Positions 1,083-6,810 of a DNA stretch of 13,467 nucleotides are shown here, piece after piece. The stretch is from Bacillota bacterium. Its GTDB lineage: Bacteria > Bacillota > Clostridia > Clostridiales > Clostridiaceae. Where the stretch lies: the NCBI GenBank assembly GCA_030705885.1, contig JAUZPN010000085.1:1-13467 (forward strand), in the 5' to 3' direction. Positions within the stretch are counted from its first letter, which is position 1; every line of letters starts with the position of its first letter. The notes below the pieces were generated by a model. It saw only the letters and a list, made by a program, of their open reading frames with translations. It did no database searches and had not been told where the DNA came from. Position numbers and translations under genes: made by a program.

Positions 1083-1116
1083 AAGCTTTTCCGATGTTTT
1101 GGAAAGCTTCTTTTTA
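1083..1116. terminator. Bidirectional rho-independent terminator shared by convergent ilvD (+) and the WYL operon (-)
   Basis: AGAAGCTTTTCC / GGAAAGCTTCT inverted repeat with an 8-nt loop, flanked by an A-run on the left and a T-run on the right. It is positioned immediately after both stop codons. Confidence 0.55.
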
Positions 1117-2109
1117 TGGTATACTTTTATTTATCATACTTGAACTGAAAAGTTCTTTCTGCCTTATTAACCTTTCTTTAATTTTAATTAGAAAGCTTTC
1201 AGGACCTATTACTTTTATAACTGGACCAAAGGATAATATAGTAATTAGAAGTTCTGTTTCATCATGTTTGTCATAATAAATATAATTTATATATTTATCG
1301 CTGGTTTCATCATATTCTGTACGCTTTTCATAATTTGCAAAGTGCAGCATACATCTTTCAACAGCATTTCTTTCCTTTGATATTTCAATTACAACAGGCT
1401 CACTGCACTTGTTCATTTCTATATACTTTTCAAAGGAAATGCAGCCATCATAAATTTCTTGTGATGGTGATATAGTTGATATTCTTGAAATGTTTATTAT
1501 TGCAGAAGCTGTAATTTTACCATATTTAATTCTAACTGCATATAGTCTGAACTTATCATTTTTGCTGGAGTATTCTAATTTACAGGGTATAAAATTTCCA
1601 GTAATTCTTCCTGATTTTAAGCTTTCGAAAGAAATTGTTATAACCTTTTTGCTTTTTATTGCAGATAATATTTGATGAAAATTATTTATATAAGCTTCAT
1701 CTGAATAATTATCTCCATCACTGAAAGTATCAAAATAATAAAAGTCTTCCATATTAAATAATGGCTCAACATCTTTAAGCTGTTCTTTTAAATATTCAAT
1801 ATCATTGTTCCCTAAAAAGAGTAGTATTCTTTTGTCGGTTAACAATGCTTTTATCCAGGATTTTTCTAATATAGTTAGTGGCATTTTAATGTTACCATTT
1901 ATTTTGGAAAGATATTTATTATCGTGTTTTTCAAACAAATTCCATTCATTATTTATAAACTTTGGCAAAACATAAAAAGCACTTTCAGAGAAAGCACCAT
2001 CTTCAATAATTTTAGACATCATTTCTTCAGTAATTGGATTGTGTGCTTCTTTTAAAATGTTAGAAACAACTGTATAATAGCAACTGTAAATTTCAGAAAA
2101 TAGCTCCAT
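1114..2109 (-). CDS. HTH-WYL-WCX family transcription regulator (PafC-like paralog, 331 aa)
   Basis: It has a WYL-type core (KFRLYAVRIKYGKITASAIINISRISTI, matching the ..rwYLvay..-..FRLdRI.. pattern). The C-terminus has a WCX-like extension (ELLITILSFGPVIKVIGPESFLIKIKERLIRQKEL). The ATG lies 3 bp downstream of the stop of the upstream paralog, so translation is coupled. Confidence 0.6.
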   Translation of the reverse strand: MELFSEIYSCYYTVVSNILKEAHNPITEEMMSKIIEDGAFSESAFYVLPKFINNEWNLFEKHDNKYLSKINGNIKMPLTILEKSWIKALLTDKRILLFLGNNDIEYLKEQLKDVEPLFNMEDFYYFDTFSDGDNYSDEAYINNFHQILSAIKSKKVITISFESLKSGRITGNFIPCKLEYSSKNDKFRLYAVRIKYGKITASAIINISRISTISPSQEIYDGCISFEKYIEMNKCSEPVVIEISKERNAVERCMLHFANYEKRTEYDETSDKYINYIYYDKHDETELLITILSFGPVIKVIGPESFLIKIKERLIRQKELFSSSMINKSIP

Positions 2110-2112
2110 AGT

Positions 2113-3345
2113 TTAATCAACTCCATACATGTTAAACATTCTATTTATATCACGGTATAGCTTTTGTTCTATAGTTTTGTTTGAGCATTCAAATGAAACT
2201 ATTCTGCCAATAAAACTCTTAATCCAAGGAAGAACTTCATTTCCATCGAATACCTCCTTAGCGTATATATATAAATTAGGTTCCAGCCTTTCAACTGTAC
2301 CATTCATACCTTCGAGTTTTAACCTATTTATAATATAAGATTCAAGTTCTTCATCAATGTATAGCTTCATTTTCAATATGCTGCCTCTGGAATTGTTACC
2401 AAATGAAACCCCCCAGCATTTATCTAAATTATTATTTAATCTTGATGTATAGAGATCATAATTTTCACATTTATTAAGTATTTCAACTGATTTAATATAA
2501 TCGAGCCTGTAATTTACAAATCTCTTTCTTGCTTCATTATAAATAGCAATATACCTACGCCCGGTTCTGCTGCTTATAAATATTTTAAGTGGGATGCCTT
2601 CATATTTTAGTATCAATTCAGTTTTAATACTTTGATTGATAAAACTTATTCTTTTCTTTGTTTTTATAGCTTCTAAAATATTATAAAGAATTTTATCCTC
2701 TAAAGTATGTACAATATAATTATGTTTAAAAATAAAAATGCTGTTTTTTTCATTTTCATTAGACATAAGGTAGCTGCCAATAACTCCAAAAGGAGCAGTG
2801 CCCTGGTAATATTTTATGGCATTTAATAAAGCTTCAGAGTTTACTGATATATTTGAAATATATTGTTTTGATAAACTATAATGCAAAGCTTTACCTGTTT
2901 TGCAGGCTGTAAGAATTCCATCCTTTACATATTCATTAGCTTTTATCCTTACAGTTTGTATATCAAAACAAATATCACTTTTTTTACATATATTATTTGT
3001 AATTTCATCAGCTGTAAGACAGGAGCTTGTACTTAATGTATCCAATATATAAAAATGAAGCATTATATCATTGGAGGTAAAGCTTTTTGATCTCCAAGCA
3101 TAGTAAAAAGGGTTTTCACTTATTTTTGAACTGTCAAGGCTTATAAAAACACGCTTGCCTCCCTTAAAGTTTTCCCATTTTATATAATTTCCAAGATAAC
3201 TTTCAATTCTTCTCTTTTCATTATCATAAGTTCGGCAGCTCTTTTTTGTAAAGTCTTTTCTTGTTTTAAAACCATAAATATAAAAATCGCGCATATAATC
3301 TCTTATTTTATCAAAGTTCTTAACTAGTTCTGAAAACTCAGCCAT
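2113..3345 (-). CDS. HTH-WYL-WCX family transcription regulator with N-terminal extension (PafB-like paralog, 410 aa)
   Basis: It has a strong WYL signature (GRRYIAIYNEARKRFVNYRLDYIKSVEIL). A WCX-like C-terminus is present (LPWIKSFIGRIVSFECSNKTIEQKLYRDI). A DeoR/HTH_11-like segment is present (KKSCRTYDNEKRRIESYL; ILDTLSTSSCLTADEITNNI). An SD-like AAGGCGGTG sits 6 nt upstream of the ATG at 3345. Confidence 0.6.
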   Translation of the reverse strand: MAEFSELVKNFDKIRDYMRDFYIYGFKTRKDFTKKSCRTYDNEKRRIESYLGNYIKWENFKGGKRVFISLDSSKISENPFYYAWRSKSFTSNDIMLHFYILDTLSTSSCLTADEITNNICKKSDICFDIQTVRIKANEYVKDGILTACKTGKALHYSLSKQYISNISVNSEALLNAIKYYQGTAPFGVIGSYLMSNENEKNSIFIFKHNYIVHTLEDKILYNILEAIKTKKRISFINQSIKTELILKYEGIPLKIFISSRTGRRYIAIYNEARKRFVNYRLDYIKSVEILNKCENYDLYTSRLNNNLDKCWGVSFGNNSRGSILKMKLYIDEELESYIINRLKLEGMNGTVERLEPNLYIYAKEVFDGNEVLPWIKSFIGRIVSFECSNKTIEQKLYRDINRMFNMYGVD

Positions 3346-3411
3346 ATTTTCACCGCCTTTTTAACTAATTTGAACTAACCATCCATGATGGTGGCAGCAT
3401 AACCACGAATA

Positions 3412-3432
3412 AAAATGGTGACAAGCCATTTT
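3412..3432. promoter_or_regulatory. Candidate dimeric-regulator operator (perfect 7-N7-7 inverted repeat), proximal copy
   Basis: AAAATGGtgacaagCCATTTT lies about 65 bp upstream of the WYL operon start codon. Its centre is about 62 bp (roughly 6 helical turns) from the second copy at 3474-3494. Confidence 0.35.
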
Positions 3433-3473
3433 CTAATTAACCACCCATGTTGGCTGCAGCACAACCACGGATA

Positions 3474-3494
3474 AAAATTGCAGCAAGCTATTTT
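3474..3494. promoter_or_regulatory. Candidate operator, distal copy (imperfect inverted repeat)
   Basis: AAAATTGcagcaagCTATTTT has one arm mismatch and occupies the same position within repeat unit 2. Confidence 0.3.
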
Positions 3495-3720
3495 TTAATT
3501 AAATATTATAAGGGAAGCATAGATTATAGGTATAATTTTAGCAGTTTAGTGCAATAAAAACAATTAGTGAGTTAATTTCGCAACTTTTTTTATATGATAA
3601 AATTATTTGCTTATGGTAATATTTATCCATGGAAGGTGAGAAAAATAATTCCATAATAAAATGTTCTCTTACTATGTTTGATAACAAAGTTTTACTAAAT
3701 TATTAAAATAAGATTTTGTC

Positions 3721-3816: not shown

Positions 3817-5049
3817 ATGTTTGTTATAAACAATGAACAAACTAAAAAACCAATAAAAATATGGCTGGAAAATGAAGAAAGTTTAGAGGATACTTGTCTA
3901 GAACAAGCATATAAATTATCACAGCTGCCATTTATTCATAAATGGGTAGCACTTATGCCTGATACTCATGCTGGAATGGGTATGCCTATAGGCGGAGTAA
4001 TTGCTTGTAAAAATGTTATTATCCCAAATGCAGTAGGAGTAGATATAGGATGTGGTATGTCTTTCATTGGTACAGATATTAAAGTAGATGATATAAAAGG
4101 TATAACTACACCAAATGGAAGTTTGTTTAAAGGAATTATTGGTGATATTTTAAGAAATGTACCTGTTGGCTTTGCTCATCATAAAACAGCAAAACCATGC
4201 GATGCATTAGATAGAGCAAAAGAAGAAATGGATAAATACAAAAGTCAGCCTGAATTAACTGGTCAAATAGAGGATGGATATTTTCAGGTAGGAACTTTAG
4301 GAGGAGGAAATCATTTTATTGAAATACAGGAAGATGAAGAAGGTTGTCTTGGAATAATGCTTCATTCAGGAAGTCGTAATTTTGGTAAACGTATATGTGA
4401 TTATTTCAATAAAGCTGCTAAAGAGCTAAATGAAAAATGGTATTCTAAAGTACCTCCAGAAGATAGATTAGCTTTTCTTCCAGCAGACACAAAGGAAGGA
4501 ATTGACTATATAAACTGGATGAATCTAGCCTTAGATTTTGCAAAAGAGAATAGAGATAGTATGATGGTAGAAATAAAAAATGTTCTAGAAAAATGGATAA
4601 GTAAATATACTAAGATTAAATTTAAATATACTATAGAAGTAAACTGCCACCATAATTATGCTAGTATTGAAAACCATTATGACAGCAATGTATGGGTTCA
4701 CAGAAAAGGGGCAATAAGAGCAAGAGAAGGAGAAATTGGAATAATACCAGGGGCTATGGGGTCTTACAGCTATATTGTTATAGGTAAAGGAAATCAGGAA
4801 AGCTTCTATTCATGTTCTCATGGTGCAGGAAGACGATACTCAAGGAAAGCAGCAATGGAAAACTTTACAGTAGAACAAGTTATGCTGGATTTAAAACAGC
4901 AAAATGTTGTCCTTGGTAAAACATCTAAAAAGGATGTACCTGAGGAAAGCAGATTTGCTTATAAAGATATTGAAGAAGTAATGAAATCTCAAACAGAATT
5001 AGTTACTCCAATTAAAAGACTCAAAACATTGGGAGTGGTTAAGGGATAA
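3817..5049 (+). CDS. rtcB: RtcB family RNA 3'-phosphate (2',3'-cyclic phosphate) to 5'-OH RNA ligase, 410 aa
   Basis: Metal/GTP-site motifs of RtcB are present: DTHAGMGMPIGG, GCGMSF (Cys), GGGNHFIEIQ, HSGSRNFG, NCHHNYA, SHGAGR. Size is bacterial-type (~408 aa). RBS AAAGGAAG lies 8 nt upstream. Confidence 0.92.
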   Translation: MFVINNEQTKKPIKIWLENEESLEDTCLEQAYKLSQLPFIHKWVALMPDTHAGMGMPIGGVIACKNVIIPNAVGVDIGCGMSFIGTDIKVDDIKGITTPNGSLFKGIIGDILRNVPVGFAHHKTAKPCDALDRAKEEMDKYKSQPELTGQIEDGYFQVGTLGGGNHFIEIQEDEEGCLGIMLHSGSRNFGKRICDYFNKAAKELNEKWYSKVPPEDRLAFLPADTKEGIDYINWMNLALDFAKENRDSMMVEIKNVLEKWISKYTKIKFKYTIEVNCHHNYASIENHYDSNVWVHRKGAIRAREGEIGIIPGAMGSYSYIVIGKGNQESFYSCSHGAGRRYSRKAAMENFTVEQVMLDLKQQNVVLGKTSKKDVPEESRFAYKDIEEVMKSQTELVTPIKRLKTLGVVKG

Positions 5050-5064
5050 TATATTTATTATAAG

Positions 5065-5167
5065 TATACTATCCTCGGTCACAAAGTTCCAATAAATTTC
5101 CAAAAGAAGCTTCACCTCGCTATCATTTACAAATTAATTGGAACTAAATGTGTCCGAGGAAAGTATA
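5065..5167 (+). mobile_element. ~103-bp MITE-like element with imperfect 19-bp terminal inverted repeats, copy B
   Basis: TIRs are TATACTATCCTCGGTCACA ... TGTGTCCGAGGAAAGTATA. A nested inner inverted repeat is present (AGTTCCAATAAATT ... AATTAATTGGAACT). It is about 93% identical to the copy at 8502-8604. The right end carries TGGAAC-N19-TATAAA, an outward promoter-like module. Confidence 0.55.
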
Positions 5168-5330
5168 AATAAGATTATTACAGATTTGACAAGTGTCATC
5201 TGTTTAATATAACTGAAATTTTTTATGCTAAGGCTTATGATGCCTTGCGGTGCTTGAGTCTATGACGATAAAGTATACCGAAATTTCAGGTTTTGTTGTG
5301 AATGACGAAGGTTCGATTCCTTTATTGCCA

Positions 5331-5403
5331 TGTGCAATTAGCTCAGAGGTAGAGCATCACCAGATTAAATTGGATTTTGGAGGTTCGAATCCCCCACAAA
5401 GAC
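5331..5403 (+). ncRNA. tRNA-like element: canonical D-arm and T-arm, degenerate anticodon and acceptor regions (tRNA mimic or tRNA-Lys/Asn-derived pseudogene)
   Basis: The D-arm GCTC-AGAGGTA-GAGC is at 5341-5355, preceded by T8-A9. The T-arm GGAGG-TTCGAAT-CCCCC is at 5379-5395 with one stem mismatch. The anticodon-arm position (TCACC-AGATTAA-ATTGG) cannot form a 5-bp stem. The 5' and 3' acceptor strands are not complementary, and there is no encoded CCA. The anticodon-arm 3' half resembles tRNA-Lys(UUU) (TCAATTGG vs TAAATTGG). A further T-arm-like fragment (GAAGG-TTCGATT-CCTTT, 5308-5324) and a GC-rich 5-bp hairpin (AAGGC-ttatgat-GCCTT, 5230-5246) lie upstream. Confidence 0.5.
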
Positions 5404-5418
5404 TTTCCCGTCTTTTTT
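5398..5418 (+). terminator. Small rho-independent terminator closing the tRNA-like transcription unit
   Basis: AAAGAC-tttccc-GTCTTT is followed by TTT. The stem is weak and AT-rich. Confidence 0.35.
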
Positions 5419-5462
5419 AATATTTTAATACCTATGAACGCAGCCTGCTGTGTTTATAACAT

Positions 5463-5482
5463 AACTGCAGCCTGCAGTTTTT
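5463..5482 (+). terminator. Second terminator-like hairpin (AACTGC-agcct-GCAGTT + TTTTT)
   Basis: The hairpin contains two PstI palindromes (CTGCAGCCTGCAG) followed by a T-run. It is preceded by a near-duplicate GCAGCCTGCTG motif at 5441-5452. Confidence 0.3.
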
Positions 5483-5709
5483 AAGATATCACTGTTTGTA
5501 TTTTACTTTCATTTCTTAGGCAGAAATCTTAATTTATACTATGTTTAGTCATGAAATTTCAATAAATTTCAGCTATACATAGTACAATTAGATAACATAA
5601 GGAACCAAAGTAATTTACAACAGCTCAATTTAAACTCCGCTTCAGTTATGTGGTATTAAGATATAGTTCTAAGCTATAAATTAAAGTATCTAAAAAGGGG
5701 TTGTTAAAG

Positions 5710-6810
5710 ATGGATCATATTATAAATGAAAATCAGAGAGGTTATTTGTTTAGAAATGGATGCTTTGTAAAACTATTATCATCAGGAAAATACAACTTTC
5801 CAAGATTTCTTGGATATAGAGTTGAAAGTGCATTGATAAACGATGAAGCTATTTCAGCAAGTGTTAATATAAATGTACTCTTAAAAGATAAATTATTTTC
5901 AAAAAGCATAACTAGTATAATGGTGGTTGATAACAAAATAGCTGTTCACTTTATAAATGGAAGAATAAAAAATATATTGCAGAGCGGAGAGTATTATTTC
6001 TGGAATATTTTTAATAAGCATACTTTTGAAATAATTGATATGTCAAGTACTGAAGTTTCAAAGGAAATAGATAGAACAATTTTTAATTATATTCCTATAA
6101 AGTATTATACAAAAATAATAGTACCTGATGGACAAAAAGCAATATTATATTTTGATGGAAAGCTTAACAAAGAACTTAGCTGTGGCACTTATTTTTACTG
6201 GAATGTTAAAGAACAAGTATCATATCAGCTTGTAGATATGAGGCTTCAGCAACTTGAAATTTCAGGGCAGGAAATATTAACTACAGATAAGGTAAGTCTT
6301 AGAATCAATTTTAACTGCATTTATAGAATAAAGAATGCTGTTAAAATATTATCTGAAATAAGAGATTATAAGGTTCAGATTTACAGTCTTATTCAGCTTG
6401 TTCTTAGAGAATATGTTGGAGGCTTTAAATTTGATGAGCTTTTAGATCAAAAGGAAGAAATTGCAGCATTTGTGCTTACTAAATTGAAAGAAAAACAGGA
6501 TGAATATTTTATAGAATTTACTACTGCAGGTATAAAGGATATTATACTTCCAGGCGAAATTAAAGAAATTATGAATACAGTACTTATTGCAGAAAAGACA
6601 GCACAGGCAAATGTAATAACAAGGCGTGAAGAGGTTGCATCTACTAGAAGCCTTTTAAATACTGCAAAGCTTATGGATGAAAACAAAACTCTATACAAGC
6701 TCAAGGAAATGGAGTATATTCAAAAAATATGTGATAAGGTTGGAAGTATATCATTAGGCGGCGGAGAAAATCTCTTGAACCAGCTTAACGAATTGCTGTG
6801 CCAGAAATAA
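5710..6810 (+). CDS. SPFH/band-7 domain protein (YdjI/COG4260-like) with a triplicated N-terminal beta-repeat
   Basis: The central region resembles the SPFH fold (QEILTTDKVSLRINFNCIYRIKNAVKILSEIRDYKVQIYSLIQLVLREYVGGFKFDELL), followed by a coiled-coil-like tail. Three N-terminal repeats match G-x-Y-x-F/Y-W-N...VE/D (res 29-45, 95-112, 161-178). I chose the ATG at 5710 with GGGG 9 nt upstream. The ORF track begins at TTG 5701. Confidence 0.65.
   Translation: MDHIINENQRGYLFRNGCFVKLLSSGKYNFPRFLGYRVESALINDEAISASVNINVLLKDKLFSKSITSIMVVDNKIAVHFINGRIKNILQSGEYYFWNIFNKHTFEIIDMSSTEVSKEIDRTIFNYIPIKYYTKIIVPDGQKAILYFDGKLNKELSCGTYFYWNVKEQVSYQLVDMRLQQLEISGQEILTTDKVSLRINFNCIYRIKNAVKILSEIRDYKVQIYSLIQLVLREYVGGFKFDELLDQKEEIAAFVLTKLKEKQDEYFIEFTTAGIKDIILPGEIKEIMNTVLIAEKTAQANVITRREEVASTRSLLNTAKLMDENKTLYKLKEMEYIQKICDKVGSISLGGGENLLNQLNELLCQK

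Follow-up and report, generated by a model that had tools for sequence, protein, structure and literature searches.

The stretch of DNA analysed here (the window) is an entire contig of 13,467 nucleotides (nt) from a Bacillota metagenome-assembled genome. Its genes are arranged in the order ilvD fragment, an open reading frame (ORF) of 331 amino acids (aa) and a WYL-domain ORF, both on the minus strand, rtcB, a gap of 660 nt, an SPFH gene, and genes for a CAAX protease, IleRS and a rhomboid protein. The gap holds the RNA element described in this work. Directly upstream of the element is rtcB, an RNA 3′-phosphate ligase gene (3817–5049, plus strand; Pfam RtcB, E 9e-114). Directly downstream is a gene for a soluble SPFH/band-7 protein of the 'slipin family' (5710–6810, plus strand; Pfam Band_7, E 4e-28). 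The two genes and the element share the same strand and orientation, and all RNA features given below lie on the plus strand. We predict from sequence comparison that the plus strand from around 5213 to at least 5421, and probably to around 5651, encodes a structured non-coding RNA built around a circularly permuted tRNA-like core. The region is conserved in sequence, its structure covaries between lineages, and it is associated with the SPFH gene.

An earlier annotation made from the letters alone (the original prediction) had described a tRNA-like element at this locus. All the motifs that it quoted are present, namely a D-arm, two T-arms (here called T1 and, downstream of it, T2), a GC-rich hairpin (5230–5246), and a hairpin followed by a U-run (5398–5418). 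It took the T2 arm to be perfect, but the middle pair of this arm is an A·C mismatch. The element had been centred on T2, with T1 regarded as an orphan T-arm. Covariation and the alignment to the Rfam YrlA model place the core on T1, which is the T-arm of a conserved fold, and T2 is an extra arm downstream of it.

The core spans residues 5298–5360 and is defined by the Rfam YrlA alignment, by our model R1, and by covariation. In the predicted fold, the chain would enter via GUGA (5298–5301), one strand of a helix that resembles an anticodon stem. It would then run through a variable-loop analogue (AUGAC, 5302–5306) and T1 (GAAGG-UUCGAUU-CCUUU, 5307–5323). From T1, which is followed by AUUGCCA, it would pass directly into a hairpin closed by its own loop (AUUGC-CAUGU-GCAAU, 5324–5338), which would substitute for the acceptor stem and lies between T1 and the D-arm. 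U8 and A9 (5339–5340) and the D-arm (GCUC-AGAGGUA-GAGC, 5341–5355) come next. After A 5356, the chain would exit by the second strand of this helix, UCAC (5357–5360), which closes the domain by pairing with GUGA. T1, the closed hairpin and the D-arm are thus predicted to be one circularly permuted tRNA-like domain closed by GUGA/UCAC. The acceptor-equivalent strand pairs with the sequence after T1 (4–7 of 7 positions), not with the sequence after T2 (1–5 of 7).

Three further details of the original prediction are affected by this fold. It was correct that no acceptor stem forms with the sequence after T2, but a loop-closed equivalent is present at 5324–5338. The segment after the D-arm, which had been thought unable to form a stem, pairs with GUGA through UCAC and also contains a 4-base-pair (bp) hairpin (5360–5373). 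The AUUGCCA sequence had been taken for the CCA end of a tRNA. We rejected a CCA-ending tRNA fragment because the CCA is part of a hairpin stem and its loop and is conserved in no orthologue. With no anticodon loop and no free CCA end, the RNA cannot be charged or decoded.

The order of T-arm, closed acceptor-like stem, D-arm, and closing helix at the position of the anticodon stem is also that of YrlA (RF02553). The anatomy of YrlA, with a permuted tRNA-like module and tRNA-like tertiary contacts, has been described by Chen et al. (2014, PMC4201824). YrlA and the RNA of the window share their conserved nucleotides for tRNA tertiary contacts, and both are linked to rtcB, YrlA in Salmonella and other bacteria. 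Some members of the present family have a 7-bp acceptor-like stem, as does the YrlA of M. smegmatis. At permissive thresholds, YrlA is the best Rfam match in the window. It aligns end to end at 5277–5384 with 42.2 bits (E 5.9e-8; gathering threshold 69).

Relatives of RtcB were collected from 185,579 species genomes, which gave 80 loci; the closest relative is 69% identical. Searches with R1 and with sequence patterns located the permuted core 110–310 nt downstream of rtcB in related loci. The core scores 65–87 bits with R1 in loci L001–L007, L011, L013, L015, and L017–L019. A metagenome scan with RtcB gave five more core loci, which are near-duplicates of the Enterocloster type. A search seeded with the SPFH protein added members from C. 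acetobutylicum, C. sediminicola and other Clostridium-type contigs (60–64 bits). In all, the core scores 56–87 bits in 24 loci besides the window, and its hosts include Clostridiaceae, Lachnospiraceae (Enterocloster, Otoolea, Jutongia), C. acetobutylicum and C. sediminicola. A covariance model made from six orthologues with the window left out (R2) matches the window at 5298–5425 with 82.8 bits (E 2.4e-16); the next match in the window has an E-value of 0.76.

The R1 alignment of 19 sequences (A3; the window and 18 loci) has 97.2% of its cells paired, and 14 of the 19 pairs show double changes. Its covariation score is 0.655, compared with 0.17 for shuffled alignments, and none of 500 shuffles reaches it. 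Slid controls, in which the 3′ partner of every pair was moved by 1–3 columns, score at most 0.22. In the alignment to a longer model (A8, 13 sequences), 96% of the cells are paired and double changes are seen in 24 of 29 pairs. An independent MAFFT/RNAalifold analysis shows compensatory changes in the closing stem, the T1 stem and the D stem. RNAalifold and the pair counts taken together show them in all four helices of the core.

The nucleotides that hold a tRNA together are also retained. U8, A14, G15, G18, G19, A21, C48, U54, U55, C56, and A58 are invariant in the 19 aligned sequences, and they include the residues for all the tRNA tertiary contacts (U8-A14, G18/G19 with the T-loop, U54-A58, G15-C48). 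As the core and elbow nucleotides do not vary, the RNA should present a tRNA-shaped elbow and an acceptor/T minihelix. The fold energy of the whole region is ordinary (z = −0.8); thermodynamics alone would therefore not have flagged the element.

Upstream of the core is a three-way junction (5213–5289), which was derived from single-sequence minimum free energy (MFE) folds, RNAalifold and nhmmer. Its closing helix, P0, is formed by CUGAAAUUUU (5213–5222) and GAAAUUUCAG (5280–5289). P1 is a hairpin (5227–5248, with AAGGC/GCCUU at 5230–5246). P2 (5249–5279) consists of a GUGCU/AGUAU helix, with G·U, U-A, and G·U pairs, and an apical hairpin; its register is that given by RNAalifold, which finds compensatory changes in both P1 and P2. 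The same P0/P1/P2 junction is seen in the MFE folds of most of 13 orthologues, in which the P0 sequences are unrelated to each other (for example, AUUAUUAUCAC/GUGAUAAUAAU in L001 and CUUACUAUUUC/GAAAUAGUAAG in L281). MAFFT cannot align P0 and P1 across lineages, and the support for P0 comes from the single-sequence folds and inspection. The P2 helix, GUGCC/GGUAU, is nearly invariant in the family. An nhmmer model of this domain built without the window matches it at 5221–5284 (E 1.9e-7). Because P0 covaries in every lineage, it was preferred to the outer stem of the YrlA alignment (ACCGAAA with UUUUGG), which was rejected.

A conserved box, AAGCUUUUAUAUAA, abuts the 5′ strand of P0 in L001, L281, L282, L285, and L288; the corresponding sequence of the window (5203–5213) is GUUUAAUAUAAC. 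The box resembles a −10 element; alternatively, it could be a processing site. Transcription that begins downstream of such an element would leave out the covarying strand of P0, and a TTGACA-16-TATAAC promoter candidate, which the consensus scan did not call, was dropped for this reason.

Three smaller features follow the core. The first is the 4-bp hairpin CCAG-AUUAAA-UUGG (5360–5373), which varies in length between lineages and is probably the remnant of an anticodon arm. The second is T2 (U-GGAGG-UUCGAAU-CCCCC-A, 5378–5396, with the arm at 5379–5395). Its central pair in the window is the A·C mismatch, and no orthologue has another unpaired T2 cell of this kind. The T2 stems vary by lineage and stay paired (GAGGG/CCCUC, GUGGG/CCCAC, GAAGG/CCUUC, UGCGG/CCGCG, GAUGG/CCAUC). 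The T2 helix (helix 5 in A8) is 95% paired, with double changes in four of its five pairs. T2 is absent in the Enterocloster/Otoolea group, and the spacing from the D-arm to T2 varies widely between lineages. Every locus whose T2 T-loop is intact has the UGG of the 5360–5373 segment. L282 and L285, in which this loop has decayed and reads AAUUAAAA and UUAAU, lack the single-stranded UGG as well. One reading of this joint loss is that T2 may have a second partner resembling a D-loop, though the sample is too small to judge.

The third feature is the hairpin AAAGAC-UUUCCC-GUCUUU with its U-run (5398–5418), which is aligned to positions 105–119 of R2. It has a 6-bp stem with two G-C pairs, followed by U5. 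The small terminator of the original prediction is borne out to the extent that a hairpin and a U-run are there, but a consensus terminator scan did not call it, and only two of its pairs are G-C. The U-run is found in the window, in L282 and partly in L287; L281, L285, and L288 have the homologous hairpin without a U-run. The hairpin is homologous to a family hairpin, AGAC-CUNNNAA-GUCU, with a loop similar to an anticodon loop. The position of this family hairpin relative to T2 depends on the type of locus: it comes after T2 in Clostridium-type loci and before it in Lachnospiraceae-type loci. It was seen at 5400–5413 in the window and in L281, L282, L285, L287, L288, L007, L014, and L017, with an invariant 4-bp stem and a variable triplet in the middle of the loop (GUU, GCU, UCC, GUC, UAU).

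A conserved structured domain of 200–300 nt lies between the tRNA-like part and the SPFH gene (5437–5672 in the window, 4742–5006 in L281, 2805–3225 in L007). It was identified by nhmmer and by covariation. In the window, ACAUAACU (5459–5466) pairs with AGUUAUGU (5644–5651) to form its closing helix (inverted repeat I7). Models of this 3′ domain built without the window match it at 5599–5672 (E 1.8e-7) and 5437–5513 (E 0.0017). The Clostridium-type domain (alignment A10) has 25 predicted pairs, 12 of them with compensatory changes. The Lachnospiraceae-type domain (A11) has 59 pairs, 37 of them compensatory, and an unpaired GGAUACC. This unpaired GGAUACC(G) nearly duplicates the P2 strand GGUAUACC. 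Residues 5483–5494 of the window are a degenerate copy of the family motif AAGGAUACCG. Neither the 5′ domain, nor the hairpin after T2, nor the 3′ domain matches an Rfam family, in the window or in the orthologues.

The window also carries repeats in and around this region. A near-perfect hairpin of around 103 nt (5065–5167) directly follows the rtcB stop codon. Its left arm (5065–5100) recurs at 5535–5570 (78% identity) in a 54-nt hairpin (5534–5587) that interrupts the 3′ domain. Both hairpins look like insertions of the repetitive extragenic palindrome or miniature inverted-repeat transposable element type. A tandem 27-nt duplication (5440–5493, 78% identity) covers the degenerate CCUU...AAGGAUACCG motif of the window.

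The order rtcB-RNA-SPFH or RNA-SPFH-RtcB is found in around 25 loci. In the first set of loci, obtained by tblastn, the core is present in 13 of the 14 loci that have SPFH, whereas every rtcB locus without SPFH is devoid of it. Loci L283 and L284, with the order SPFH-RtcB-RlaP, have an RNA-like sequence upstream of SPFH. In L287 (C. sediminicola), the core is retained although rtcB is missing. The RNA element tracks the SPFH gene more tightly than rtcB, because the core occurs in SPFH loci whatever the position of rtcB, and even without it. The original prediction had noted the adjacent RNA ligase gene, rtcB, but had missed the closer partner, the SPFH gene downstream.

The remaining members of this conserved cassette are the WYL-domain gene (2113–3345, minus strand; Pfam WYL, E 5.8e-5) and the gene of its 331-aa partner (1114–2109, minus strand). 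By tblastn, both are divergent from rtcB-RNA-SPFH, and both are kept beside rtcB/SPFH in around 30 loci. The 331-aa protein has no match in Pfam, NCBIfam or PDB sequence searches; hhalign aligns it to the WYL domain (probability 42%, E 2.7e-4), and it probably has a WYL-like domain. The WYL protein has a weak PDB match to a transcriptional regulator-like chain (7p5x_AY), which we take to be PafBC. The two proteins are likely the regulator pair of the cassette, and a PafBC-like pair is a reasonable guess.

The neighbours that join the cassette are all RNA-repair or ribosome-rescue genes, namely RlaP, a CCA-adding-type nucleotidyltransferase, and PrfH with a second RtcB. The variant in L281 has RlaP and the CCA-adding-type nucleotidyltransferase, and its rtcB is called only as a 63-aa fragment. 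L282 (C. acetobutylicum) has PrfH and the second RtcB. The SPFH-RtcB-RlaP variants of L283 and L284 encode longer SPFH proteins (496–638 aa), and L287 consists of the WYL pair, the RNA and SPFH. Directly downstream of the 331-aa homologue in two loci (L002 1565–3373 and L004 1851–3248, minus strand) is a gene of the tRNA (uracil-5)-methyltransferase family, whose enzymes modify T-loops.

The SPFH protein has no transmembrane segment; its highest 19-residue Kyte-Doolittle average, 0.99, is too low for one. An AlphaFold2 model (predicted local distance difference test score 84) shows N-terminal beta-repeats, the SPFH domain and a long helix of 60 residues. A single PDB family, major vault protein, aligns to it over around 400 columns (E 1e-10 to 1e-8). 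Stomatin, HflK/C and prohibitin align over around 230–260 columns, with stomatin and HflK/C matching the SPFH part. The TM-scores of the model against major vault protein are around 0.43, at a sequence identity of 10–12%, which is a resemblance and not a classification.

An association of this kind has been proposed before. According to Wang et al. (2018, bioRxiv 10.1101/312249), Burroughs and Aravind (2016, NAR 44:8525) reported RtcB beside a Band-7 protein and a predicted b7a-tRNA in some bacteria, and YrlA occasionally adjoining Band-7. In the account of Wang et al., the RNAs beside RtcB/Band-7 are proposed as ligation cofactors, a computer prediction without validation. The locus described here fits an instance of the b7a-tRNA system, as matched to that secondary description. 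It has a tRNA-resembling predicted non-coding RNA encoded beside RtcB and Band-7/SPFH, and its stretch from the D-arm to T2 looks like a tRNA lacking an acceptor stem. Here, covariation backs the permuted T1 register, and the normal register yields no acceptor stem. The published b7a-tRNA may be the RNA of the window in its D-arm/T2 register, or it may be a distinct cloverleaf-like RNA of other taxa. On that description, the kind of RNA has already been predicted in the literature, and the locus is a further instance of it.

The RNA probably serves the RtcB-SPFH module as a tRNA-mimicking cofactor. On balance, and by analogy with known particles, we favour an RNA that is transcribed together with rtcB and SPFH, whose tRNA-like module engages proteins that recognise tRNA, and whose other domains tether it to an SPFH oligomer. 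The mimic would act inside the RtcB RNA-repair cassette. Candidate readers of the tRNA shape would be RtcB itself, tRNA-modifying or end-repair enzymes, or tRNA-cleaving toxins. The 5′ junction, with its GUGCC/GGUAU helix, and the 3′ domain, with its unpaired GGAUACC, may tether the module to a protein of the cassette, most likely the SPFH oligomer. This role would be the analogue of that of Y RNA for Ro60. As for its origin, a tandem pair of tRNAs trimmed at both ends could have left T1, the acceptor hairpin, the D-arm, the anticodon-arm remnant and T2. Such an ancestry is plausible and would explain the presence of two T-arms and one D-arm.

The particles of Ro60 and Y RNA (Rsr-Yrn1-PNPase in D. 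radiodurans and the metazoan Ro ribonucleoproteins) suggest a similar modular plan, with a scaffold-binding part and a tRNA-like client part, and a similar context of stress and RNA repair. The candidate scaffold here differs, being the SPFH protein and not a TROVE ring. The vault particle consists of major vault protein, which has an SPFH-like shoulder domain, vault RNA and the TROVE protein TEP1. It likewise combines an SPFH-type protein, which forms the cage in the vault, with a small structured RNA; in the window, the counterparts would be the SPFH protein and the predicted RNA. In tmRNA and viral tRNA-like structures, a T-arm and an elbow also mimic tRNA outside decoding. Those RNAs have a free aminoacylated acceptor end, whereas the acceptor equivalent here is closed by a loop.

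Several points weigh against a separate RNA of this type. Locus L014 has lost the core and keeps the 5′ domain and T2, and L289 and L290 carry SPFH without the core. A promoter and terminator scan of the window gave counts at chance level, with no consensus promoter or terminator called, and a −10-like TATAAC box (5208–5213) overlaps the P0 strand. The copy in the window is slightly eroded. Besides the mismatch in T2, the loop of its AGAC hairpin has 6 nt (7 in relatives), the distal motif is degenerate, and the 27-nt tandem duplication and the two hairpin repeats have been inserted. In addition, the conserved, covarying structure runs to around 60 nt before the SPFH start codon, and in the Lachnospiraceae loci T2 is not followed by a terminator-like hairpin and U-run.

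The last two points would suit a different reading, in which 5213 to around 5651 is the cis-acting 5′ leader of the SPFH mRNA. The tRNA-like module would then be a sensor whose reader might be, for instance, RtcB, a nuclease or some tRNA-binding protein, and alternative pairings would set SPFH expression. The RNA is always directly upstream of SPFH and on the same strand, wherever rtcB lies. A candidate switch is CGGUG, which could pair with the local GUAUACCG or the distal GGAUACCG, two near-duplicate motifs that could compete for this one partner. The SPFH loci without the core keep a motif of the GGAUACCG type (exact in L290, GGAGAUACCG in L289). However, neither a regulated terminator nor a helix that would mask the ribosome-binding site was found, and the alternative pairing, judged by eye only, fails in the Otoolea group. 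The window, C. acetobutylicum and L287 have the hairpin and U-run right after T2, which would end a separate RNA of around 200 nt. The closest known relatives, the YrlA RNAs, are stable, trans-acting and cut out of operon transcripts (PMC4201824). We regard a cis-acting leader as possible but less probable. Still more tentative is an elaboration that draws on both ideas. An RNA of 450–600 nt, outside Rfam and with four domains (5′ junction, permuted tRNA body, T2 with the AGAC hairpin, and 3′ domain), could form a vault-like particle with soluble SPFH that presents damaged tRNAs to RtcB or baits anticodon nucleases, or it could report the repair status by switching SPFH in cis. We consider this doubtful.

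The likeness to YrlA raises the question of whether the element is a true Y RNA, with its Ro60/Rsr partner encoded at another place in the genome; YrlA itself binds Rsr and is modified by TruB and DusA. No other Rfam family matches as well as YrlA, which aligns over its full length and shares the linkage to rtcB, and the window has aCCGAAAu at 5277–5284, close to the Rsr-binding motif GNCGAAN0-1G. In YrlA, this motif of Chen et al. (2014, PMC4201824) is near the 5′ end, in a stem that the two RNA ends form. In the window, it lies inside the 3′ strand of P0 and not at the 5′ end of the RNA, and it is not kept in the family; the orthologues have CCGUGAU, AUCAUAA, GCCGUAC, and ACCGGGC at this position. 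The ends of the RNA form no Ro-binding stem, and a three-way junction is there instead. The window also adds a second T-arm, a hairpin resembling an anticodon loop, and the 3′ domain, which YrlA does not have. The score of the window is below the gathering score of RF02553, L281 reaches 25.3 bits over the core only, and none of 13 orthologous loci pass. No Ro/TROVE gene was found among the ORFs of the 13.5-kb contig, the annotated neighbours of L281–L290, or ten of eleven candidate large flanking ORFs from L002–L019, and none adjoins the element in around 30 related loci. The YrlA layout is present, and membership in the Y RNA family is not supported because the Rsr motif, the rsr neighbour and the Rfam score all fail. 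A true Y RNA thus appears very improbable. The YrlA-type mimic of the original prediction is upheld for the architecture, through the full-length alignment and the covarying order of the arms, but not for the family.

The original prediction had also considered a decayed attachment site, that is, inert fragments of tRNA genes left by an integrative element. The two T-arms, the single D-arm and the lack of a complete cloverleaf would agree with this, as would the resemblance of ATTGCCA to a tRNA 3′ end and the repeated hairpins that flank the locus (5065–5167 and 5534–5587). However, the non-canonical layout is kept in 25 loci across families of Clostridia, with compensatory changes in every helix. 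ARAGORN found no intact tRNA at the orthologous position in L001–L019, the CCA is not conserved, and the neighbours are housekeeping or repair genes. A Pfam scan of the window ORFs gave no integrase or mobile-element gene flanking the site. The RNA of today is under structural selection; the attachment-site remnant and pseudogene readings are therefore excluded, and we give them next to no weight. A functional tRNA with missed boundaries has equally little in its favour: the stretch from the D-arm to T2 scores 28.7 bits in L281 and 32.1 bits in L013 with the Rfam tRNA model, the latter above the threshold of 29, but the match in the window is partial (5338–5396, model positions 7–64) and reaches 24 bits, Rfam at gathering thresholds reports no family in the window, ARAGORN finds no tRNA gene there or in the orthologous spacers, the sequence after T2 cannot form an acceptor stem, a 5-bp/7-nt anticodon arm is missing from the proper register, and the distance from the D-arm to T2 differs widely from lineage to lineage.

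The roles of tRNA-like Y RNAs and of bacterial RtcB are still open, and the band-7-associated tRNA-like RNA has, in the account of Wang et al., been a computer prediction since 2016. The present family is a permuted tRNA mimic under strong structural selection in Clostridia with no Ro protein nearby, and it belongs to a much larger conserved RNA covered by no Rfam family. Orthologues are present in C. acetobutylicum, C. sediminicola, Enterocloster and Otoolea muris, which are cultivable and genetically tractable. The role of a tRNA mimic in RNA-repair cassettes is therefore directly testable. What deserves further attention is the larger multi-domain RNA, together with the hosts that can be cultured. 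Our alignments could seed a new RNA family, which would stop such loci from being read as tRNA pseudogenes. Literature searches returned no paper on the WYL-rtcB-tRNA-like-SPFH cassette or its expression, and an exact look-up of the RtcB protein of the window gave no record.

Two minor observations were made in the course of this work. Two tandem 62-nt repeats (3373–3496, 79% identity) are present in the divergent promoter region that separates rtcB from the WYL gene, and they may be operator sites for the WYL regulator pair. Elements of the permuted YrlA type were also seen on phage contigs. A scan of viral contigs for a T-loop followed by a D-arm was saturated by tandem phage tRNAs, and the tandem phage tRNA genes mixed among the R1 matches score 30–58 bits. 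The permuted elements, on contigs L148, L154/L157, L088, L136, L095, L114, L121, L159, and L086, score 50–66 bits with R1.

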